From assembly GCA_013585095.1 (NCBI GenBank), contig GCA_013585095.1_3039.1: a DNA stretch of 64,000 nucleotides. One strand, given 5' to 3'. Position 1 is the first letter of the stretch. Each line of letters opens with the position of its first letter. The notes under the pieces were generated by a model. It did no database searches. It was not told the DNA's origin and saw nothing but the letters and a program-made list of their open reading frames with translations. Made by a program: the position numbers and the translations under genes. The stretch is from a phage. Below, one piece after another: positions 4,357 to 58,467 of the stretch.

Positions 4357-4453
4357 AGTTTAAAATTTTTTCATAAAACTATATACATCAGTAGTTGATT
4401 ATGGTACTATATCAATATCAACTACTGATACAGAAAACAACTTGGAGAATAAA

Positions 4454-4723
4454 ATGGAAAATTTAATTATCATCGAGCAATCTTTCAATGATTATGGTAT
4501 GGCTTACGGTTATCGTGCGATAATGGAAGATTCTCGTGGATGTGTTATCGATATTGCTGAATGTAAAGATTTACTGCAGCTTTTGAAGATTGTTCGCAAA
4601 AATTGGGATTGTGAAAACATTAAAGCTCGTGTTGTAACGGAAGAAGAAACTGTTTTTCATGATGTAAAATTCGCTAAAGGTGCTGCTACTCTTCTGAAAC
4701 GCATCGCTCCACTGTTCAATTAA
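4454..4723 (+). CDS. hypothetical protein
   Basis: ATG after GGAGAA; track start is TTG 4442. Confidence 0.45.
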   Translation: MENLIIIEQSFNDYGMAYGYRAIMEDSRGCVIDIAECKDLLQLLKIVRKNWDCENIKARVVTEEETVFHDVKFAKGAATLLKRIAPLFN

Positions 4724-12853: not shown

Positions 12854-12882
12854 TTTACAAGACTGTTCTTCCGTGGTACTAT
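12854..12882 (+). promoter_or_regulatory. T4-type early promoter
   Basis: gtttacaagactgttcttccgtggtactat. Confidence 0.55.
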
Positions 12883-12910
12883 TACTCTATCAACTACGGA
12901 GGAACAGAAA

Positions 12911-13024
12911 ATGAAAAAGATTATTAAAGCTATATGGAATGTAGTTATAATATTAATAGTTTTGAGTATATTCCCAATCGTTTTAATGATTGATGTATTA
13001 AACGCTTACTTTGGATTTATGTGA
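12911..13024 (+). CDS. small hydrophobic membrane peptide (37 aa)
   Basis: MKKIIKAIWNVVIILIVLSIFPIVLMIDV...; RBS GGAGGAA; promoter upstream. Confidence 0.4.
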   Translation: MKKIIKAIWNVVIILIVLSIFPIVLMIDVLNAYFGFM

Positions 13025-15957: not shown

Positions 15958-16103
15958 GTCCATTCATAGGTATTACAAGCGCTGCATTAGTATCCGGTAG
16001 CATTTTACTGGCGGGTTTAGGTGTTGTTCCAGCCGTAGCAGGAGGTCTTCTTGCGTTCGGAATTCAACGTGTTATCATGACAGTTATCACAGTCATGCAG
16101 TAA
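15954..16103 (+). CDS. small membrane peptide (49 aa)
   Basis: overlaps gp52 stop; strong terminator follows; not in ORF track. Confidence 0.35.
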   Translation: MSPFIGITSAALVSGSILLAGLGVVPAVAGGLLAFGIQRVIMTVITVMQ

Positions 16104-16108
16104 TTTTA

Positions 16109-16136
16109 GGGAGAGCCTCGGCTCTCCCTTTTTTAT
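16109..16136 (+). terminator. intrinsic terminator downstream of gene 52
   Basis: gggagagcCTCGgctctccc followed by tttttt. Confidence 0.75.
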
Positions 16137-16158
16137 TTTAAAATTTTTTCACAAAACG

Positions 16159-16188
16159 GTTTACAACCAAAGCATTCTATGGTACTAT
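16159..16188 (+). promoter_or_regulatory. T4-type early promoter upstream of motA
   Basis: aaaattttttcacaaaacggtttacaaccaaagcattctatggtactat. Confidence 0.6.
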
Positions 16189-16229
16189 ACAACTATCAAC
16201 TACTGATACAGAATTACGGAGATTAGAAA

Positions 16230-26219: not shown

Positions 26220-29200
26220 TTATTCAACCCATTCAAATTTAACAGTTTTATTCACTGGGTCAGGAATAATGCGAACATTACCAATTCGCAAGAAATCGCG
26301 AATAGTAAGATTCCCCATTGTAGCATTATCAGATGGTAAAGCACCGATATCAGATGGTTGAGGAGGGTTACCTCCATCAAATACCTGAACAAAACTTGAC
26401 CAAGAGTTTTTGGTTTTCTGCCATGTACGTGTCCAGCGAGTGGTACGCGCTTCTGGTGTCGTTGGATAAGTAATCCAATCTTGGTAAAGCGAATCAAGTG
26501 TGTTACCAAATTGTGTCAGTGTACCAGGAGATTTAACTTCTTCGCCACGTTCTAAGTACGGAAGTCCAGTCACTTCATTAGTTTTTTCAACCATTTTAAA
26601 ATAACCCGGGAACTGGTTATAAGTAGCTGAATCATTAATATCAATTGACCAGAATCCTACAGTATCAGATGTTGGTGCGCGAGTGTATAAATCAGCAGTT
26701 TTAGTACCCTGAGAACGAATTCTCGAGTTAACGGTTAAACCACCAGAATTTATAGTAGCGCCTTTGGCAATGATTAAGCTTTCACCGATCGTTACTTGTC
26801 CAGATGCATTATTAATAGCTAAAGGGCGTAATCCATTAAATCCACCGGTCTGATCACCCGATGCAGTAAGCATAAAATAGGTGTTAGCAGCATCATTGCG
26901 AATAAAGAATCCATAGTCGCCATTTATTGCTCTGAAAGCATTTGTTGATTTACTGATGAATTCGCCATTAGCAGTAACTGAACTACCAAATGTTGCAACG
27001 CCGTTAGCGTTCAAAGAACCTGAAGCGTTAACATTTATCGGCATCACAGTACCATTAATGCTAAACGTTATATTCCCAGCTTTATTACGTTGAGAATAAA
27101 AGTGATTAGACGTTTCATCACCAACTTCAAATACAGTAGAACGTGTTGTATCTGAACCGCCACCAAACTGATTTCCCCAAACTCTGATAGTCATCGTCTG
27201 CGCTGGGTTAGTTCCAGTTTGAGGTCCTTTCTCAAAAATCAGACGAGTTGCCGTTCCAGTATTAGAAATAGTTAATGTACTATTTGCCGAAACTGAACCA
27301 CCAAACGTAGCAGTACTAGATGATACAAGAGGGGCACTCAGATTCGTTTGTTGGGTTAAGGTTAGTGAACCATTAACCGTCTGTGCAATATCCCTACGAA
27401 TGAACTGAGATGAATCTAGGCCATCTAATAAATTTGCGTCAGCAGCTTTTGCTTTTAACGGCAGATAATTTGCTAATACACGGTTTAATTCATATGGTGA
27501 TACCGCATAGCTATTTTTCTCATACAGTTCTAAATCTTGGGTAGAACCGACTGTATCATTACCAACGAATGTAATTGAACCAGATGAAGTTTTAACAAAA
27601 CCTCTTATTGCAGTAGTAGCTGCCCAAGTAGGTTCACTCTGCACAATCCATTTTAAATTTTTTGGAGATACAGCAGTATTTGCTGATGTTCCAGCTACGG
27701 TTTCAGCTTGAGTTGCAACTTTAATAACACCTTCTTGCGATTCGGTAGATTTAGTACCTAAAAGCTTTTTAGGAGTTATTAAAACATTATCTAATGTTCC
27801 TGCAGCAGCTTCAACTTGTGTAGCTACACGAAGTGTACCACGTTGCGTCTCATTTGCTTCAAGAATATTAAGGGTATAATGGTCCCAGAGAGTTCCTGAT
27901 TCAACTAATCCAGATAGAGCAACAACAGAAGTACGATCAGTACTATTAAATCTGGTTTTAATTTTTAATGGTGTAGAGATACGAGTATCGTCGACGCCTG
28001 CGTCGAATTCAACTTGTGTAGCAATTTCAGCTATACCACTTAAACTTTCAGTTGCTCTACGGTCATTTAAAGTTTTAGGAGTGACTGCACGAGTATAATC
28101 AGTTCCTGTATTAACTTCACTTTGCGTAGCAATTTCAATTAAACCAATTCTTGCATCAGTTGATGTCTTTTTATGTAACGTTTCTGGCGTTACAACCGCA
28201 TTTGCCCATCCTTCTTGGCTTTGTCCAGCAATTACTTCACTTTCAACTGCTAAAATTACTGCACCTTGCTGTGTTGGAGTAGCTTTATACTGATCCAAAG
28301 CTTTAGGTGAAACAACTAAATTATTAGTGTTTTTATTATAAACATTCGTACCATTTAATTCACGGCTAGAAGCTGGAGTAGCTCCTGCAGTAGATACAAA
28401 AGTTACAATACCAGATAATGATTCAGAACCTTGACGAGCTTGAAGCTTTTTAGGAGTAATGATTGTAGTATCATCAGTACCTGCATTAGTTTCTTGCTGC
28501 GTAGCAATTTCTGCGACACCTCTGCGAGTTTCTGTAGCAGTTCTTTCATTCAGCTTTTTAGGAGTGATGATAATATCATCAGCAAAAGAGAATGTGGTGT
28601 TCTGATTCACTTGAGCAGTAGTTGCTATTCTTGCGATACCTCTACGAGTTTCTGTAGCAGTACGATTAGCTAACGTTTCTGGAGTAATTGCTAATTCTTT
28701 TTGTGGAGAATTTTCTAAATCGACATTAGCTTGAGCTTGTGTAGCTAAAGCAATTACGCCTAATCTTGCTCTAGTAGAATCATTTAAAGAATCTACTCTT
28801 TCGACAGTTGGAACGTTTTGCTGTACAACCCAGTATTTTCCATCAGAATCTTCTATATAAGCAAGCTCTAAAACTGGAACATAATTAGTTTCACCATTAA
28901 AAACTAATTCTTGAACTGTAACCCACTCAGCTTCAGGCGGATATTCTGAGCGTTTTGGGAATTGCAGCAATTGAACTGAAGAAGCAATTTTATCTTCACC
29001 AGCAGCTTTGATTTTAACTGTTTGTCCTTTTCTCATGTAATTCATGGAAATTTTAACAGTATCACCAACAGAGATATCAGTAGGAAGCTGAAGCTCAATT
29101 GTCTGAGTCATTCCATTATTCGCTCCAAATACCATAACTTCTTCATTTGGACGAATGTTTGAATTAGTCGTTATAATACGTAAACGTGCTTTACTGTCCC

Positions 29201-33363: not shown

Positions 33364-33386
33364 TAGATTATATTACTAATTAATTG

Positions 33387-33410
33387 GGGACCCTAGAGGT
33401 CCCCTTTTTA
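33387..33410 (+). terminator. intrinsic terminator after gene 32
   Basis: ggggaccctagaggtcccc followed by ttttta. Confidence 0.7.
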
Positions 33411-33434
33411 TTTCAAAAATTTTTTCACAAAACG

Positions 33435-33464
33435 GTTTACATCCTTGTCCTTCCATGGTACTAT
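33435..33464 (+). promoter_or_regulatory. T4-type early promoter
   Basis: caaaaattttttcacaaaacggtttacatccttgtccttccatggtactat. Confidence 0.55.
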
Positions 33465-33507
33465 ACAACTATCGGCAATACTGCTGATGATTAAAGAGGA
33501 AAATAAT

Positions 33508-34171: not shown

Positions 34172-34200
34172 TTTACAACGGGCTATGGTAATGATACTAT
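34171..34200 (+). promoter_or_regulatory. T4-type early promoter with -10 inside an inverted repeat
   Basis: gtttacaacgGGCTATggtaatgatactATAGCC. Confidence 0.55.
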
Positions 34201-34228
34201 AGCCTTATCAACTACTGAGGAGAATAAA

Positions 34229-34471
34229 ATGAGATTACAACGTCAGAGCATCAAAGATTCAGAAGTTAGAGGTAAATGGTATTTTAATATCATCGGTAAA
34301 GATTCTGAACTTGTTGAAAAAGCTGAACATCTTTTACGTGATATGGGATGGGAAGATGAATGCGATGGATGTCCTCTTTATGAAGACGGAGAAAGCGCAG
34401 GATTCTGGATTTACCATTCTGACGTCGAGCAGTTTAAAGCTGATTGGAAAATTGTGAAAAGGTCTGTTTAA
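34229..34471 (+). CDS. hypothetical protein
   Basis: 80 aa, early promoter and GAGGAG RBS upstream. Confidence 0.45.
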   Translation: MRLQRQSIKDSEVRGKWYFNIIGKDSELVEKAEHLLRDMGWEDECDGCPLYEDGESAGFWIYHSDVEQFKADWKIVKRSV

Positions 34472-41190: not shown

Positions 41191-42778
<1,588 letters not shown>

Positions 42779-42781
42779 GCT

Positions 42782-42836
42782 GTTTACAAGTCCCTCGTGT
42801 TGTGTTATAGTAATCTTACTGACATAACATGAGGAC
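42782..42836 (+). promoter_or_regulatory. early promoter plus 5'UTR hairpin cassette (repeat copy A)
   Basis: gtttacaagtccctcgtgttgtgttatagtaatcttactgacataacatgagga; 54/55 identical to 58088..58142. Confidence 0.6.
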
Positions 42837-42842
42837 TTTATG

Positions 42843-43346
42843 ATGGATTTACAGCTTATTACTACTGAAATGGTCGTTGAAGCATACGGTGATACTACAG
42901 ATGGGATTTCTGTATTCAAAGGAAATCGTCGAGTTGGATATATCACCGATCTTAAGAAAGATTTAGCTAAGCAAGTCAAGCGGAAAACGACCATTAAAGA
43001 ATATCGAAATCGTCGTCTTGAGCAAGCCCGTGATATGCTTCCTGATGCGGTTGAAGAGATGAAAGTCTTTTTAGAAAATCAACTCGCTAAGTATGATTGC
43101 GAAGTGTTCATTAATCAGACTCAACCTAATGTTCATATCAATAGCTGCAAATGCTATATCATCGTTAATCCTTTGACTGGAAAGCATCGTCTTGGAATTA
43201 GTAATCCAAATCGTAGTGCATCGGATATGGCAGAAGATGTTGAGGCATGCTTTAAAATTTCTAAATCTCCGGCTGAACATCATATTTTAATTAACGGTCT
43301 TTCTCAAGACGATATTATAGAGGTTATTAAAACTTTATGCAATTAA
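42843..43346 (+). CDS. Alc-like protein (by size and position)
   Basis: 167 aa from second ATG (T4 Alc 167 aa); between rnlA and pseT. Confidence 0.45.
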   Translation: MDLQLITTEMVVEAYGDTTDGISVFKGNRRVGYITDLKKDLAKQVKRKTTIKEYRNRRLEQARDMLPDAVEEMKVFLENQLAKYDCEVFINQTQPNVHINSCKCYIIVNPLTGKHRLGISNPNRSASDMAEDVEACFKISKSPAEHHILINGLSQDDIIEVIKTLCN

Positions 43347-46106: not shown

Positions 46107-46136
46107 GTTTACTTTTTGGTAGAGTTGTGATATTAT
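46107..46136 (+). promoter_or_regulatory. T4-type early promoter with -10 inside an inverted repeat
   Basis: gtttactttttGGTAGAGttgtgatattatagCTCTACC. Confidence 0.55.
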
Positions 46137-46166
46137 AGCTCTACCAAAACAAATGAGGAAATTGAA

Positions 46167-46403
46167 ATGCTAAGTGAAAAACCAATTACTGTTAAAGAAT
46201 TCCAAGAAAAAGTTAAGCTATTTGCGCAGGAATTGGTAAATAAGGTTTCTGAACGATTTCCTGAAACATCGGTTCGTGTTATTACCGAAACTCCTCGTTC
46301 AGTATTAGTAATTGTGAATCCAGGTGATGGCGATCAAATATCGCATCTTAAACTGGATTTTGATGGATTAGTTGAAGCACAAAGGGTGTATGGCGTACTA
46401 TGA
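46167..46403 (+). CDS. hypothetical protein
   Basis: 78 aa; GAGGAAA RBS; early promoter upstream. Confidence 0.45.
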   Translation: MLSEKPITVKEFQEKVKLFAQELVNKVSERFPETSVRVITETPRSVLVIVNPGDGDQISHLKLDFDGLVEAQRVYGVL

Positions 46404-49071: not shown

Positions 49072-49075
49072 GTTG

Positions 49076-49104
49076 AGGACTCCTTCGGGAGTCCTTTTTT
49101 ATTT
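49076..49104 (+). terminator. intrinsic terminator
   Basis: aggactccTTCGggagtcct + tttttatttt. Confidence 0.7.
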
Positions 49105-49124
49105 TCCAAAGATTGCATAAAGTT

Positions 49125-49157
49125 GTTTACAGTATGGTTCCTTTGTGATAGTATTAT
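49125..49157 (+). promoter_or_regulatory. T4-type early promoter
   Basis: gtttacagtatggttcctttgtgatagtattat. Confidence 0.5.
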
Positions 49158-49181
49158 CTTACACAAACAAAGGAGAATAAA

Positions 49182-49514
49182 ATGAAAACGATTAATCTGA
49201 ACGCTACAGTTAAAACTAAATGCTTCAATGGTAAATATGATGAAACTATGTGGTTCTTAATGGCAGTTGAAGGTGATATTATTGAAGTAGAAACAACAGA
49301 AGGTATGGGAACAGATTTCACCTTTACAATTCAAGTTCATAATTTCTTTACTGGTTGGATTTATGAATTGAATACAGTAATCGTTGGAAAAATTGAACAA
49401 AATGAATTAGGCGAATGGCATTATGTTACAGCTCGCCAACGTGCCGAACGTTTGATTGAGAAGATGAAAAAAGTTGGTAAACTTGACATGCAACATTGGA
49501 AAGTAGTAAAATAA
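49182..49514 (+). CDS. hypothetical protein
   Basis: 110 aa; early promoter and AAGGAG RBS. Confidence 0.45.
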   Translation: MKTINLNATVKTKCFNGKYDETMWFLMAVEGDIIEVETTEGMGTDFTFTIQVHNFFTGWIYELNTVIVGKIEQNELGEWHYVTARQRAERLIEKMKKVGKLDMQHWKVVK

Positions 49515-49516
49515 TT

Positions 49517-49545
49517 GTTTACTTTGGTACAGGATATGATATTAT
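49517..49545 (+). promoter_or_regulatory. T4-type early promoter with -10 inside an inverted repeat
   Basis: gtttactttGGTACAGGatatgatattatataCCTGTACC. Confidence 0.55.
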
Positions 49546-49582
49546 ATACCTGTACCGCAATTAAACATCTCGGAGAATAAAA

Positions 49583-49948
49583 ATGAACTACATCAACTTT
49601 GAACGTAAATATGTTTCTAATGGTATTGCAGGTTCTATTGATACTATTTGCCTCTGGAAACATCAAAATGGTTCAGTATGCGAAATTGAACAGTATATGA
49701 CTCCTAACTACGTTTATATGCGATTTGAAAACGGTATCACAGTTTCAATCACAATGGAAGGTTCCAACTTCAAAATCGCTCTGGATGATGATTTCCGTCA
49801 ACGCGATTTAGGGACTCATCCTTGCTGGAATGGCGTTAATCGCAAGCTTTTGGTTAAAACTTGGATTCGTCATATTCTGAGTAACAGAGCTAAACCTGAG
49901 CATCTTGAAGCAATCTTTGATGTAGTTCTTAATGAATTTGATATTTAA
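49583..49948 (+). CDS. hypothetical protein
   Basis: 121 aa; early promoter and GGAGAA RBS. Confidence 0.45.
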   Translation: MNYINFERKYVSNGIAGSIDTICLWKHQNGSVCEIEQYMTPNYVYMRFENGITVSITMEGSNFKIALDDDFRQRDLGTHPCWNGVNRKLLVKTWIRHILSNRAKPEHLEAIFDVVLNEFDI

Positions 49949-50677: not shown

Positions 50678-51128
50678 GTTAGAGATAAGAAGCAATTTTA
50701 GATGGCCATCATGTGCATTAAGTAATTTCGCCCAATGGCCTTTTGTTATGGATGGTATCCAATTTGGAGGTCTCGAAGGATTCCTCCAAGGATGCAAGGT
50801 GAAAAATGTTGAACAACAGCGTCGTATATTTGGGTTATCCGGGCTTGCCGCCCAACAAGCTGGAAGGTCTTATGCTAGAGCTCAGGACCGTGGGACCCTC
50901 TTCTGGCTTGGAGTTCCGTTTTCAAGATACTCCCCAGCGTGGAAAGAATTATACACAAATGCATATTTTGAAGCAGCGTTCCAAAACAAGGGCTTTCGCG
51001 ATGCATTACAAGCCTCGAAAGGAAAAGTTTTGAAGCACAGCATGGCTAGTGGTCTAACAAAAGATGATACAATACTAACCGAAGCTGAATTTATTGATGT
51101 GTTAAACCTATTAAGAGACTCTCTATGA
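50670..51128 (+). CDS. NADAR / YbiA-like (DUF1768) domain protein
   Basis: SNFAQWPFVMDGIQFGGLEGFLQGCKV resembles remembered E. coli YbiA FSNFAAWPIKVDGKTWPTSEHYFQAQKF; ATG 50670. Confidence 0.6.
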   Translation: MSELEIRSNFRWPSCALSNFAQWPFVMDGIQFGGLEGFLQGCKVKNVEQQRRIFGLSGLAAQQAGRSYARAQDRGTLFWLGVPFSRYSPAWKELYTNAYFEAAFQNKGFRDALQASKGKVLKHSMASGLTKDDTILTEAEFIDVLNLLRDSL

Positions 51129-53902: not shown

Positions 53903-53910
53903 TATAAATA
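53903..53910 (+). promoter_or_regulatory. late promoter TATAAATA upstream of alt
   Basis: tataaata about 24 nt upstream of the alt ATG; Alt is a late, virion-packaged protein. Confidence 0.55.
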
Positions 53911-53933
53911 GAATAAACACTAGAGAGGATATG

Positions 53934-56027
53934 ATGGAACTCATTACAGAATTATTTGACGAAGATACTACTCTTCCGATTACAAACTTAAATCCAAAGA
54001 AGAAAATACCACAAATTTTTTCAGTTCATGTTGATGATGCAATTGAACAACCAGGCTTTCGTTTATGTACCTATACATCTGGAGGTGATACTAATCGTGA
54101 TTTAAAGATGGGCGATAAAATGATGCATATTGTTCCTTTTACATTAACTGCTAAAGGTTCAATTGCTAAATTAAAAGGTCTTGGTCCAAGCCCGATTAAT
54201 TATATCAATTCAGTTTTTACTGTTGCAATGCAAACAATGCGTCAATATAAAATTGATGCCTGCATGCTTCGTATTCTTAAGTCTAAAACCGCCGGTCAAG
54301 CTCGACAAATTCAACTTATTGCTGATAGACTCATCCGCAGTCGTTCAGGTGGCAGATACGTCCTTCTTAAGGAACTCTGGGATTACGATAAAAAGTATGC
54401 ATATATTCTTATACATCGTAAAAATGTATCACTAGAAGACATTCCAGGAGTTCCAGAAATTAGCACCGAGCTCTTTACTAAAGTTGAATCGAAGGTCGGT
54501 GATGTTTATATCAATAAAGATAATGGAGCTCAAGTAACTAAAAATGAGGCAATTGCAGCATCTATTGCACAAGAAAATGATAAACGTTCTGACCAAGCTG
54601 TAATCGTTAAAGTTAAAATTTCCCGTAGAGCAATTGCGCAAAGTCAATCATTGGAATCTTCTAGATTTGAAAGTGAATTATTCCAGAAGTATGAATCTAC
54701 AGCAGCTAATTTTAATAAACCTGCTACCGCTCCTTTAATTCCCGAAGCAGAAGAAATGAAGCTTGGAATTAATTCATTAGCTTCTAAAACTAAGGCAGCA
54801 AAAATTATTGCCGAAGGAACTGCAGATGAACTTCACTATGACTATAAATTCTTTTCAAAAAGTGAGGTTGATGAAGTTTCAGAAAAAATTAAAGATGTAA
54901 TTCTTAATGCGATTAAAAATGAACCAACTACTTCAATAAAATGTTTAGAGAAATACGCAGCAGCTGTTAATCAACTCTTTGAAGAATATAAAGATAATTG
55001 GCTTGATAAACATAATAAAACTCGTAAAGGGCAGCCAGATGAAGTCTGGGAAGAAATGACTAAAAATTCCTGGAACGCAGCAAAAACTAAATTCCTCAAA
55101 AGAATGATTTATAGTTTTTCTGGAATTGGTGCAGGTCCAATGATTGATATTACTATTGCCCGTGATGGTTCTAAATATACTCCATCACAAAAGCGCGGCA
55201 TTAGAGAGTATTGTGGATCAGGATATACTGACATTAATAATCTTCTTTTAGGTCGTTACAATCCAGAACGATATGATGTAATGAGTGAAAAAGAAATTGA
55301 ATCTGCTATAAATAATTTAGATTCAGCTTTTGAAAATGGTGACCGCATACCGGAAGGCATTACAGTTTATCGTGCTCAAAGTATGACTGCTCCTATATAC
55401 GAAGCACTAGTTAAAAATAAAGTATTCTATTTCAGAAATTTTGTATCTACTTCTTTAACTCCTATCATTTTTGGACGTTTTGGAATTACACATGCTGGTA
55501 TTGGTCTTTTAGAACCAGAAGCTCGCAATGAATTAACAGTTGATAAAAATGAAGAAGGAATAACTATTAATCCAAGCGAAATAAGAGCGTATAAAGAAAA
55601 TCCTGAATACGTTAAAGTTCAAATAGGATGGGCAATTGATGGAGCTCATAAAGTTAATGTTGTATATCCAGGAAGTCTCGGAATAGCAACCGAAGCTGAA
55701 GTTATTCTACCACGCGGATTGATGGTCAAAGTTAATAAAATAACTGATGCTTCTAATAACGACGGAACAACATCTAATAATACAAAACTCATTCAAGCTG
55801 AAGTTATGACTACGGAAGAACTCACCGAATCCGTAATTTATGACGGTGACCGTCTAATGGAAACCGGCGAAGTAGTTGCAATGACAGGTGATATTGAAAT
55901 AGAAGACAGAGTTGACTTTGCATCATTTGTTTCATCAAATGTTAAACAAAAAGTAGAATCATCTCTTGGAATTATTGCATCTTGCATAGATATTGCAAAC
56001 ATGCCTTACAAGTTCGTTCAAGGATAA
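53934..56027 (+). CDS. alt: Alt ADP-ribosyltransferase (copy 1)
   Basis: N-terminus MELITELFDEDTTLPITNLNPKKKIPQIF matches remembered T4 Alt; R (VYRAQS), STS (FVSTSL), ExE (ATEAEVILPRG); late promoter upstream. Confidence 0.85.
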   Translation: MELITELFDEDTTLPITNLNPKKKIPQIFSVHVDDAIEQPGFRLCTYTSGGDTNRDLKMGDKMMHIVPFTLTAKGSIAKLKGLGPSPINYINSVFTVAMQTMRQYKIDACMLRILKSKTAGQARQIQLIADRLIRSRSGGRYVLLKELWDYDKKYAYILIHRKNVSLEDIPGVPEISTELFTKVESKVGDVYINKDNGAQVTKNEAIAASIAQENDKRSDQAVIVKVKISRRAIAQSQSLESSRFESELFQKYESTAANFNKPATAPLIPEAEEMKLGINSLASKTKAAKIIAEGTADELHYDYKFFSKSEVDEVSEKIKDVILNAIKNEPTTSIKCLEKYAAAVNQLFEEYKDNWLDKHNKTRKGQPDEVWEEMTKNSWNAAKTKFLKRMIYSFSGIGAGPMIDITIARDGSKYTPSQKRGIREYCGSGYTDINNLLLGRYNPERYDVMSEKEIESAINNLDSAFENGDRIPEGITVYRAQSMTAPIYEALVKNKVFYFRNFVSTSLTPIIFGRFGITHAGIGLLEPEARNELTVDKNEEGITINPSEIRAYKENPEYVKVQIGWAIDGAHKVNVVYPGSLGIATEAEVILPRGLMVKVNKITDASNNDGTTSNNTKLIQAEVMTTEELTESVIYDGDRLMETGEVVAMTGDIEIEDRVDFASFVSSNVKQKVESSLGIIASCIDIANMPYKFVQG

Positions 56028-56030
56028 ATC

Positions 56031-58088
56031 ATGGAACTTATTACAGAATTATTTGACGGCGCTTCGGCGCCGGTTGTTAACTTAAATCCTAAGCATAAAA
56101 TACCACAAATTTTTGCTATTCAAGCCGGCGAAGAAAGTGTGCTTCCTGGATTTAGATTTTGTACATACACCTCTGGCGGTGATACAAATAAAAACGTTAA
56201 GCCAGGCGACAAAATGATGCATATCGTAATGATAGGTGTCAACGAGAAATTATCGCTGGTTAAGCTTAGAAACTTGGGTGGAAATCCAATTGGCGTCATT
56301 AATGCTGTTTTTGATACTGCTCTTCAAACAATGAAACAGTATAAAATTGACGCATGCCTATTCCGCGTACTAAAAAGTAAAACAAATGGCGCTGCTCGTC
56401 AAATGCAAGTTATTGCTGACCGTTTAGTACGTACTAAAGGAGCAGGTCGATATGTTCTTTTAAAGGAAATCTGGGATTATGATAAAAAGTACGCATATAT
56501 TATGGTTTACCGTAAAAATGCCAATTTAGAAGACATTCCAGGTGTACCTCCTATTTCAACTGAGTTATTCACAAAAGTTGAATCAAAGGTTGGTGATGTT
56601 TATGTAGACGTTAAAACAGGTAATGCTGTTCCTAAAGCTGTCGCTGTTGCTGCTTCTATTGCTTTAGAAAATGATAAGCGCACTGATCAAGCTGTTATTC
56701 AGAAAACTAAAATTAGTCGTCGATTAGCAGCACAAGCTCAATATTCTACTGTCGATGCTTCACTTCAGGGTGATAGCTTCGCTGCCAAGAAATATCAAGA
56801 GTTTGAATCTAAAGTTCCGGTATATAAAGCAGAAGGACCAATGAACTCCGGGGTTATCCAGATTGGTTCAAACTTTAGCAAAGGAGCTATCGGTGGTATG
56901 AGAAGTGCTTCTCGTTTTAAATCTAACGATTATGAACTAGAAAACTTCCGAAATCATATTGCATTAGCACATGCACGTTTACGTGATCCATCTATCAAGT
57001 TGCAGAGCGATATAACATATCAAGGTTCTCAAGAATATTTAAAGAATAAAGAATTCTTTGATTATAAAACTGATAAAATTTTAAGCGATCTTGCTGACAT
57101 TAATATTTCTAATAGCTTTGATGTTATTAAGAAAATTATCAATGATTTAGTTAAAGGTTCTAAAGCTACACCAGATGAAAAGACAGCTATTATTCAATTT
57201 GTCATGAATGGCATTTATAAATTGATTAATGAATCTGCCGCTCAGGCATATGAATATGCAAGTACTGAAGTAACTCCAAAAGGATTAACTCAGGCTGAGT
57301 CTGATGTAATTGAAGATTATTGTGCAGATTCATATGTTGAAATGAACTCGTTCCTTTTGGGTAAACCAGATTCTACCCGTGAAGAATATATGGAACGAGC
57401 TATTAAACATATTGAGACTCTTGATTCTGCATTCGCTAAAGGTTCAGTTCTTCCTCCAGGAACTACACTTTACCGTGGACAAGAAGTTACCTTTAAAACT
57501 TTGCGTCATAACATTGAAAATAAAATGTTCTATTTCAAGAACTTCGTATCCACATCGCTTAAACCAAATATCTTCGGTGAGCATGGTAAAAACTATATGG
57601 CTCTAGATGATTCCGGCGCAGTATTTTCTGGCGAAGGAGAAGGTTCCGTTGATGCAGAAGATTTGATGCATATGGGTAGTCATTCTACATATGCTAATGA
57701 AGATGCTGAAACTAGCGTGGGTATGGTAATTAAAGGAGCTGAGCGAATCAAAGTTATCGTTCCAGGTCATTTATCAGGATTTCCATCAGAAGCTGAAGTT
57801 ATTCTACCGCGTGGAATTTTACTGAAGATTAATAAAGTGAGCACGTACTTTATGAAAGAAACTGCTTATAACAAGTATCTAATAGAAGGTACAATCGTTC
57901 CTCCTTCTGAACAATTAGAGGAATCGGTATATGATGGCGACCATCTAATGGAAACTGGTGAAGTTCGTCCAATGGCTGGATTTAATCAATTCCTTGTAGA
58001 AGAATCAAAAGAAGAGGAAAACGAAGTTTCTCAAATCTTGGCTTCTTTGGTTAACATCAACGGAATGTCTAAAAAGTTCAAAATGTAG
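56031..58088 (+). CDS. Alt-like ADP-ribosyltransferase paralog (copy 2)
   Basis: 685 aa; shared N- and C-termini with copy 1, divergent middle; YRGQE, FVSTSL, PSEAEVILPRG. Confidence 0.8.
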   Translation: MELITELFDGASAPVVNLNPKHKIPQIFAIQAGEESVLPGFRFCTYTSGGDTNKNVKPGDKMMHIVMIGVNEKLSLVKLRNLGGNPIGVINAVFDTALQTMKQYKIDACLFRVLKSKTNGAARQMQVIADRLVRTKGAGRYVLLKEIWDYDKKYAYIMVYRKNANLEDIPGVPPISTELFTKVESKVGDVYVDVKTGNAVPKAVAVAASIALENDKRTDQAVIQKTKISRRLAAQAQYSTVDASLQGDSFAAKKYQEFESKVPVYKAEGPMNSGVIQIGSNFSKGAIGGMRSASRFKSNDYELENFRNHIALAHARLRDPSIKLQSDITYQGSQEYLKNKEFFDYKTDKILSDLADINISNSFDVIKKIINDLVKGSKATPDEKTAIIQFVMNGIYKLINESAAQAYEYASTEVTPKGLTQAESDVIEDYCADSYVEMNSFLLGKPDSTREEYMERAIKHIETLDSAFAKGSVLPPGTTLYRGQEVTFKTLRHNIENKMFYFKNFVSTSLKPNIFGEHGKNYMALDDSGAVFSGEGEGSVDAEDLMHMGSHSTYANEDAETSVGMVIKGAERIKVIVPGHLSGFPSEAEVILPRGILLKINKVSTYFMKETAYNKYLIEGTIVPPSEQLEESVYDGDHLMETGEVRPMAGFNQFLVEESKEEENEVSQILASLVNINGMSKKFKM

Positions 58089-58142
58089 TTTACAAGTCCC
58101 TCGTGTTGTGTTATAGTAGTCTTACTGACATAACATGAGGAA
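58088..58142 (+). promoter_or_regulatory. early promoter plus 5'UTR hairpin cassette (repeat copy B)
   Basis: gtttacaagtccctcgtgttgtgttatagtagtcttactgacataacatgagga. Confidence 0.6.
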
Positions 58143-58148
58143 CACAAA

Positions 58149-58439
58149 ATGAAATCTTCTTTGCGCTTTTTAGGTCAAGAACTTGTAGTTGAAGGCGTTA
58201 TTCCTGCTGATAATGCTTTTAATGAAGCAGTTTACGATGAATTTATCAAAATTTTTGGAACAGATAAAAAGTTCGGAATTTTTCCTTCTGAAAATTTTTC
58301 AAAGCCAGAACAGACTGAAAGTATTTTCCAAGGTGTAGTAACAGGTAAATTTGAGTCAGAAGCTCCGGTAAAAATTGAGGTTTATATTGAAGACAGTTTA
58401 GTTGCTTCAGTTGCTGCTTTTATTTCATTCCGTAAATAA
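58149..58439 (+). CDS. hypothetical protein
   Basis: 96 aa; preceded by repeated promoter cassette; hairpin follows. Confidence 0.45.
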   Translation: MKSSLRFLGQELVVEGVIPADNAFNEAVYDEFIKIFGTDKKFGIFPSENFSKPEQTESIFQGVVTGKFESEAPVKIEVYIEDSLVASVAAFISFRK

Positions 58440-58445
58440 AAATAT

Positions 58446-58467
58446 GGGGACCTTTCGGTCCCCATTG
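58446..58467. terminator. terminator hairpin between convergent units (strongest for the - strand gp54 operon)
   Basis: ggggacctttcggtcccc; on the - strand followed by AUAUUUUUAUUU. Confidence 0.6.

Follow-up and report, generated by a model that had tools for sequence, protein, structure and literature searches.

The stretch of phage DNA analysed here (NCBI GenBank assembly GCA_013585095.1, contig GCA_013585095.1_3039.1; 64,000 nucleotides at its full length, hereafter the window) belongs to a Tequatrovirus (T4-like) genome having ~98% identity to many GenBank phages, and its + strand corresponds to the direction of early transcription. The order of the genes is as in T4, namely denA, rnlA, alc, pseT.3 ... 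30, alt.1, alt, alt.-3, after which come the convergent late genes 54 and 48. The neighbors named in the preliminary description of this DNA, rnlA and alt, are those actually present, rnlA being followed by alc at one site and the second alt paralogue by alt.-3 at the other. The genes and signals of the two sites are the following:

41654-42778, + strand: rnlA (gp63), the gene lying 5′ of cassette copy 1, whose transcripts can enter copy 1
42840-43346, + strand: alc (inhibitor of host transcription), the gene under copy 1
53903-53910, + strand: late-promoter motif TATAAATA, 20 nt 5′ of the first alt paralogue
53931-56027 and 56031-58088, + strand: two tandem alt paralogues, 5′ of copy 2
58149-58439, + strand: alt.-3 homologue (96 aa, 100% identity to T4 Alt.-3, phrog_1739), the gene under copy 2
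58444-58465, no strand assigned: bidirectional terminator-like hairpin (9 bp, 6 GC) closing the alt/alt.-3 unit before the convergent late gene 54

Both alt paralogues are full-length ADP-ribosyltransferase genes with repeat segments of ~72–78% DNA identity and a short third match at 51071-51095, within the 30.3 homologue; in T4 the second alt is reduced to the fragments alt.-1 and alt.-2, and the window phage keeps it in full. Just 5′ of rnlA, at 41603-41628, a MotA-box-like TGCTTC is found 15 nt before TACTAT, or 13 nt if one counts from where the 9-bp MotA box ends; since the published list of T4 middle promoters that have been mapped (Table 1 of PMC2988021) has no entry for rnlA, this site is kept as promoter-like only. 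A four-member family of 68-nt direct repeats with 62–74% identity lies on the − strand at 27712-28688, in the late long-tail-fibre block.

A 54-base segment, here called the cassette, is present in front of alc and again in front of alt.-3:

42782-42835, + strand: cassette copy 1, between rnlA and alc, spanning the −35 box to the end of the Shine–Dalgarno sequence (SD)
58088-58141, + strand: cassette copy 2, between alt paralogue 2 and alt.-3, with the alt stop TAG overlapping its first base

The two copies are identical at 53 of their 54 positions, and no match comparable to this pair was obtained in 100 dinucleotide shuffles. Their similarity is sharply bounded, extending from the first base, the G of GTTTAC, to the final A of GAGGA, with unrelated sequences on either side, and the sole difference inside the cassettes is A42813 of copy 1, replaced by G58119 in copy 2, which is the first loop base of the hairpin described below. 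The copies had originally been given as 42782..42836 and 58088..58142 with 54/55 identities; they are indeed located there, but position 55 differs too (C vs A) and the identity over that length is 53/55. T4 itself possesses both copies, before alc and before alt.-3, and among Tequatrovirus records the cassette is found at 999 places in 500 records (about 500 genomes, two each) with 92–100% identity, so that the pair represents a fixed feature of the genus and not a peculiarity of the window phage. The whole window matched no Rfam family at gathering score, and a string search of papers for the cassette sequence returned nothing relevant.

The elements recognized within the cassettes are listed here:

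42783-42788, + strand: −35 hexamer TTTACA of copy 1, part of the T4-early GTTTACA motif (promoter scan)
42793-42806, + strand: lower-stem 5′ arm of copy 1, CCUCGUGUUGUGUU, which holds the anti-SD CCUC and sits in the promoter spacer (fold)
42806-42811, + strand: −10 hexamer TATAGT of copy 1, with the extended-10 TG at 42803-42804 and a 17-bp spacer
42809-42820, + strand: apical 4-bp stem AGUA/UACU of copy 1, with loop AUCU at 42813-42816 (fold)
42818, + strand: predicted start A of copy 1, in the 3′ half of the apical stem-loop (placed from the −10 spacing)
42821-42834, + strand: lower-stem 3′ arm of copy 1, GACAUAACAUGAGG (fold)
42831-42835, + strand: SD GAGGA of alc (ATG 42840), 4/5 of its bases within the stem
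58089-58117, + strand: −35 TTTACA (58089-58094) and −10 TATAGT (58112-58117) of copy 2 (promoter scan)
58099-58140, + strand: hairpin of copy 2, with 5′ arm 58099-58112, apical stem-loop 58115-58126 and 3′ arm 58127-58140
58124, + strand: predicted start A of copy 2 (placed from the −10 spacing)
58137-58141, + strand: SD GAGGA of the alt.-3 homologue (ATG 58149) (sequence and fold)

Both promoters consist of a −35 TTTACA, a 17-bp spacer, a TGn and a −10 TATAGT and rank among the best σ70 matches between 40.5 and 59 kb; the −35 GTTTAC and −10 TATAGT originally attributed to the two copies are thus borne out by the promoter scan. A-rich runs, as read from the sequence, lie 5′ of the cassettes, inside the coding ends of rnlA and alt. 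The cassette interior contains no late-promoter TATAAATA, the internal promoter being of the early σ70 type.

The extended inverted repeat said to carry GAGGA in its 3′ arm is real, but its stem is longer than had been described. It consists of a 14-bp lower stem (CCUCGUGUUGUGUU / GACAUAACAUGAGG, including three G-U pairs), an AU bulge, a 4-bp apical stem and a 4-nt loop, with 18 bp in total; its ΔG is −22 kcal/mol (z −5.9 to −6.2), a stability not attained by any of 200 shuffles, and the structure is retained when folded in 221-nt contexts. The −10 box, which had been assigned to the loop, does lie between the lower arms, but what it covers is the final pair of the lower stem together with the bulge and the apical stem. 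In Tequatrovirus the sense RNA reaches −24.4 kcal/mol vs −15.4 kcal/mol for the antisense, the source of this difference being the three G-U pairs, and this large excess of sense over antisense stability argues for a role exerted at the RNA level on the coding strand.

Some other functions of such a structure were considered and discarded. An intrinsic terminator was rejected because neither hairpin is followed by a U-tract, the 3′ flanks being ACUUUAUG and ACACAAAAUG; the terminator scan flags neither copy. An RNase III site was set aside in that the stems of other genera comprise only 9–13 bp, and stems of this length are too short for RNase III. Finally, a RegB site was rejected for Tequatrovirus, the SD being GAGG and not the RegB target GGAG.

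With the start site placed as predicted, the 5′ arm is found only in RNA begun upstream of the cassette promoter, and the accessibility of the SD was accordingly computed for the two types of transcript. On read-through RNA the predicted mean probability of the SD being unpaired is 0.00 for alc and 0.20 for alt.-3, and a stable stem covers the SD in both short and 221-nt contexts. The RNA beginning at the predicted +1 (about 42818 and 58124, respectively) lacks the 5′ arm and is unstructured at the SD (z +1.1 and +1.6), with predicted probabilities of 0.62 (alc) and 0.80 (alt.-3). Folding of both transcript forms, which had been proposed as a check, therefore yields a stable SD-covering stem on the read-through RNA only, and the predictions agree both with the notion that transcripts started within the cassette leave the SD open and with the notion that transcripts arriving from upstream fold the ribosome-binding site into the stem. 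At copy 2, which is overlapped by the alt stop, a terminating ribosome could melt the lowest pairs and cause some coupling.

In the published T4 time course (PMC9697503 supplement), the RNA as well as the protein of alc and of alt.-3 falls in the early class. The same study (PMC9697503) places alt in the late class and the RNAs of alt.-1 and alt.-2 in the middle class, and for rnlA it gives an early RNA and a late protein. In neither spacer, rnlA-alc or alt to alt.-3, did the terminator scan reveal a terminator-like site, and this, together with the lack of a U-run after the hairpins, leads to the expectation that later transcripts read into alc and alt.-3. The late-promoter motif at 53903-53910 is a likely source of late read-through into copy 2.

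The reading that we favor, with moderate confidence, is that the cassette is a promoter-embedded anti-SD insulator by which translation is limited to the RNA made from its own early promoter. The cassette would represent the fusion of a strong T4-type early (σ70) promoter with a translational insulator, the spacer right after the −35 encoding the anti-SD 5′ arm, the 5′ UTR encoding the SD-bearing 3′ arm and transcription starting between the two arms. The leader made from the cassette's own promoter (~22 nt for alc and ~25 nt for alt.-3) would contain the 3′ arm only, leaving the SD open and translatable. RNA coming from upstream, i.e., from rnlA and earlier promoters in the case of copy 1 and from the late alt promoter in the case of copy 2, would carry both arms and would have its SD folded into the 18-bp hairpin. 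Translation of alc and alt.-3 would in this way be tied to their own early promoters and would stop at early-promoter shut-off despite later read-through. The basis of this reading consists of the sequence, the fold, the covariation, the recurrence at other early promoters and the published T4 timing, and from these we infer where transcription starts, that translation is blocked and what purpose the arrangement serves.

Protein searches of IMG/VR with Alc and Alt.-3 returned only 5–6 close Tequatrovirus loci, and the GenBank phage collection was used instead. Homologues of Alc occur in many Straboviridae genera, and the rnlA-alc spacer was read in another 15 phages, which represent 14 other genera or unclassified lineages. 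A −10-spanning hairpin whose stem sequence differs from case to case is found at alc in ten Tevenvirinae genera including Tequatrovirus, its other holders being Gelderlandvirus, Karamvirus, Winklervirus, a Klebsiella phage, Roskildevirus, Dhakavirus (two phages), Kanagawavirus and Tegunavirus. In eight of the ten genera the 5′ arm follows directly after TTTACA with TCTCC or TCCTC, the 3′ arm ends with GGAGA or GAGGA and the SD is buried, its probability of being unpaired on read-through RNA being 0.00–0.03; examples of arm pairs are TCTCCGTTTAGTT / AACTAAACGGAGA, TCTCCATTTGGTT / AACCAAATGGAGA, TCCTCATTTTGTT / AACGAAATGAGGA and TCCTCATCAG / CTGATGAGGA. In Kanagawavirus and Tegunavirus the hairpin ends 2–3 nt before the SD, which is mostly open (0.82 and 0.62, respectively). 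Folding of the rnlA-alc spacers of Mosigvirus, Gaprivervirus, Lazarusvirus, Tulanevirus and Cronobacter phage S13 gave no alc hairpin, and in Gaprivervirus an additional small gene separates rnlA from alc. In Gaprivervirus VR25 (locus 100-400) this extra gene encodes 77 aa, is annotated as an alc-like inhibitor and follows a terminator-like hairpin of the GGGG...CCCC type, with a −35-like TGTACA in the loop.

The covariation of the stems was analysed on an alignment of the arms only, joined by a constant artificial linker and anchored at the −35 edge and at the SD end; MAFFT and RNAalifold applied to full cassettes misaligned the 3′ arms and gave nothing useful, and N-padding still shifted the register. 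In the arms-only alignment, whose register was set by the analyst and which hence leans towards structure, its anchors being fixed sequence landmarks, 91% of the cells pair vs 38–54% when the partner is slid by 1–3 columns. Double compensatory changes are found in 9 of the 13 aligned pairs, and the covariation score is 0.684 vs 0.242 in shuffles (0/500). As far as sequence comparison can go, this cross-genus covariation shows that pairing at alc is under selection. The scan of related phages suggested at the outset has thus yielded both the ~500 Tequatrovirus records with the cassette and an alc hairpin that covaries across genera. In the alc leaders of Gelderlandvirus, Karamvirus, Roskildevirus and Dhakavirus the buried SD is GGAG, the target of the RegB endoribonuclease; in these genera the hairpin might also shield the read-through RNA from RegB, the own-promoter RNA staying cleavable.

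Within Tequatrovirus, 24 cassette copies were compared (window, T4, T2, RB10, teqhal, UFV13 and others). Of the eight changes within the stem, five keep the pairing, namely G16A (GU to AU), C15T then G50A (CG to UG to UA), G40A (UG to UA) and C13T, and those that break a pair (G29A, C12A and G40T) are all located at helix ends or in the apical stem, G29A also bettering the −10 box to TATAAT; loop or bulge changes occur at positions 27, 32 and 33. The polymorphisms A16, C27, A/G32 and A33 are found at both sites in different genomes, which suggests, in so far as these comparisons can tell, a continuing conversion between the copies. The idea that the direct repeats are potential recombination substrates gains support from these common polymorphisms as well as from the literature on promoter-early stem-loops (PeSL) considered below.

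The history of the second copy appears to be different from that of the first. In Karamvirus and in the Klebsiella phage the alt to alt.-3 spacer has a different early promoter without an SD hairpin; a second cassette “place” found in these genomes turned out to be this alt.-3 promoter, with which the cassette has core promoter and leader in common, but not the hairpin. It follows that the function of the hairpin at alt.-3 is not anciently conserved. Copy 2, which adjoins the variable alt duplication, appears to be a Tequatrovirus-specific conversion in which the alc cassette replaced the promoter-to-SD segment of alt.-3; the ends of the replacement would fall in the GTTTAC and GAGGA motifs common to both sites.

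The + strand of the window contains 14 strong early-promoter-like sites, nine of which have significantly stable hairpins (z −2.4 or lower). Five of these nine bury the SD by means of an arm located upstream of the start, namely those of motB.2 (promoter 2784), ndd.4 (12854), alc (42783), 30.8 (49126) and alt.-3 (58089), and four have stable hairpins that do not include the SD (promoters 4382, 34172, 46108 and 49518; z −3.9 to −6.3). Besides the two cassettes, the structures are these:

2784-2842, + strand: motB.2 anti-SD hairpin, ΔG −23.5 kcal/mol, z −6.3
12854-12913, + strand: ndd.4 anti-SD hairpin, ΔG −22.7 kcal/mol, z −5.6
49126-49184, + strand: 30.8 anti-SD hairpin, ΔG −12.1 kcal/mol, z −2.5
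4382-4456, 34172-34231, 46108-46169 (before cd.2) and 49518-49585 (before 30.7), + strand: promoters with SD-free hairpins (fold)

The stems found at motB.2 covary as well, being TCCTCGG.../...CTGAGGA in Tequatrovirus, TCTCCTCATG/CATGAGGAGA in Dhakavirus and TCTCCTCTGGTT/AACCAGAGGAGA in Mosigvirus. Among the + strand genes with a recognizable SD, near-complete SD burial is seen at 4 of the 12 starts preceded by a promoter vs 2 of the 46 others (Fisher p = 0.014), and the folds of the two exceptions without a promoter are not significant. Three of the SD-free hairpins span the −10 box and the predicted start, the stem at 34172 lying upstream of the start and overlapping the −10. The hairpins that miss the SD, i.e., these four and those of Kanagawavirus and Tegunavirus, indicate that a more general role of the stem-loop may exist, and the four in the window are not accounted for by the insulator model. 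The window also contains classic PeSL-type units, in which a GC-rich terminator hairpin with a T-run is followed by an A/T-rich tract and an early promoter, at 16101-16197, 33377-33473 and 49075-49131, the first two being 76% identical over 97 nt.

Could the stem-loop, as has been proposed for the PeSL, act mainly on transcription or RNA stability, attenuating or terminating the read-through from rnlA or alt or protecting the 3′ end of the upstream mRNA, with SD burial as a by-product of fitting a hairpin into a 60-nt intergenic space? We hold this, the main rival, to be unlikely, albeit worth serious consideration. In phage RB49 the usual place of a PeSL stem-loop is the interval from −35 to −10 or the −10 box itself, which it then overlaps (Arbiol et al. 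2010, PMC2839356), and one such stem-loop lowered the expression of a downstream reporter (PMC2839356); the Kanagawavirus and Tegunavirus hairpins, like four of those in the window, extend across the promoter and leave the SD uncovered, and a stabilization of the upstream mRNA would make sense since the rnlA and alt products are needed late. However, no alc hairpin has a U-run, the flanks are A-rich and the terminator scan flags none of them. Furthermore, in eight of the ten genera at alc and in all three examined at motB.2, the two arms correspond exactly to anti-SD and SD, the one fixed at the −35 edge and the other at the SD end, a precision for which a pure stabilizer would have no need, and strong SD burial is confined to promoter-bearing starts.

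A different explanation is that the cassette matters chiefly as DNA, as a portable promoter module of the PeSL type whose repeats are recombination sites and whose hairpin is either incidental or a recombination signal. The identity ending exactly at the common GTTTAC and GAGGA motifs, the different alt.-3 promoter of Karamvirus and of the Klebsiella phage, with the Tequatrovirus copy looking as if converted from the alc cassette, the presence of A16, C27, A/G32 and A33 at both sites in different genomes and the position of copy 2 at the border of the variable alt duplication (remnants alt.-1 and alt.-2 in T4 vs a full second alt) all point in this direction, and exchange mediated by PeSLs has been documented (PMC2839356; Comeau et al. 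2014, PMC4122927). Yet these facts account for the duplication and not for an alc stem that covaries in genera having a single copy; the G-U pairs make the structure strand-specific, which would be unexpected for a DNA cruciform, and a deletion between the repeats would entail the loss of essential genes such as 30 and 31. We regard this explanation as improbable. We give hardly any credence to the premise that there is nothing here beyond a strong promoter, that the repeat arose recently by a chance duplication and that promoter-consensus bases merely happen to form the hairpin. T4 early promoters do have a common extended consensus, so that some similarity and self-complementarity are to be expected (PMC2988021), but none of the 200 shuffles folds as well, compensatory changes are seen across genera at two loci and both copies are kept in ~500 genomes.

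The timing of T4 gene expression is usually put down to promoter classes and a few protein regulators, early shut-off being incompletely understood (PMC2988021, PMC3014915), and the recognized instances of translation depending on the origin of the RNA are only four late-promoter hairpins (PMC3014915). That anti-SD insulation is a general, unrecognized rule of the T-even early promoters, a large share of which would encode their own SD complement after the −35, is a tentative extension that we consider possible, if rather doubtful. If this rule were true, translation of early genes would depend on which promoter made the RNA, a circumstance that would help explain the abrupt stop of early protein synthesis after early-promoter silencing, and the PeSL stem-loops would be, at least in part, translational insulators rather than terminators. 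Should early promoters commonly carry an anti-SD arm, the early genes contained in longer middle and late units would be translationally silent after the switch-off, which would offer a simple cis-acting account for part of early shut-off. A common insulator would likewise give the PeSL stem-loop a concrete function and would clarify why promoter-to-SD modules move as units between loci. As to the cassette itself, it would be a compact natural part of ~54 bp insulating a gene from read-through, which may be of use in synthetic biology.

Several known systems bear a resemblance to the insulator proposed here. With an intrinsic terminator the cassettes have in common a stable hairpin located between genes, where the first gene ends; they differ in that they have no U-run and enclose an active-looking promoter and the SD of the next gene. 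The comparison with the transcription-dependent translational control of some T4 genes, made in the preliminary description, is apt except that the embedded promoter is early, not late (PMC3014915). Experiments have established hairpin sequestration for T4 e, soc, 49 and I-TevI; the 2010 review by Uzan and Miller (PMC3014915) names these four alone, and neither alc nor alt.-3 is among them. In these genes, as is predicted for the cassettes, the promoter lies inside the hairpin-coding DNA, so that a long RNA buries the SD or the AUG and a short RNA without the 5′ arm is translated. The four T4 genes, however, have a late promoter (TATAAATA) inside the hairpin, and it is early or middle read-through that is silenced. 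The cassettes have an early one, and the read-through silenced by them would be early, middle or late; the timing is inverted.

Like the cassettes, a PeSL is a compact intergenic σ70-type early promoter combined with a stem-loop, an SD and a start codon, is repeated within the genome and is tied to recombination and gene shuffling; both copies display a strong early-type promoter, a stem-loop that spans the −10 box, a placement described for the RB49 PeSLs, and a 3′ SD and ATG, and copy 2 abuts the variable alt duplication. On the other hand, the PeSL stems are described as terminators or attenuators, often of the GGGG...CCCC type, those of PST and T4 being just upstream of the promoter, whereas the stem of the cassette is an anti-SD/SD helix without a U-tract, and copy 1 lies between conserved genes and not in a hyperplastic region. 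Translation and SD pairing are not discussed in the PeSL papers (PMC2839356, PMC4122927).

In its proposed logic the cassette finds a counterpart in the anti-SD insulators of bacterial σ54 promoters (Levy et al. 2017, bioRxiv 10.1101/086108), where, as experiments have shown, a CT-rich stretch encoded by the promoter base-pairs with the SD that follows it, so that read-through RNA is silenced and the promoter's own transcripts escape, as is predicted for the cassettes. The bacterial insulators are 3–5 nt motifs situated within 25 nt of the SD, whereas the cassettes have an 18-bp hairpin, a phage σ70-type early promoter and an anti-SD placed 38 nt upstream of the SD.
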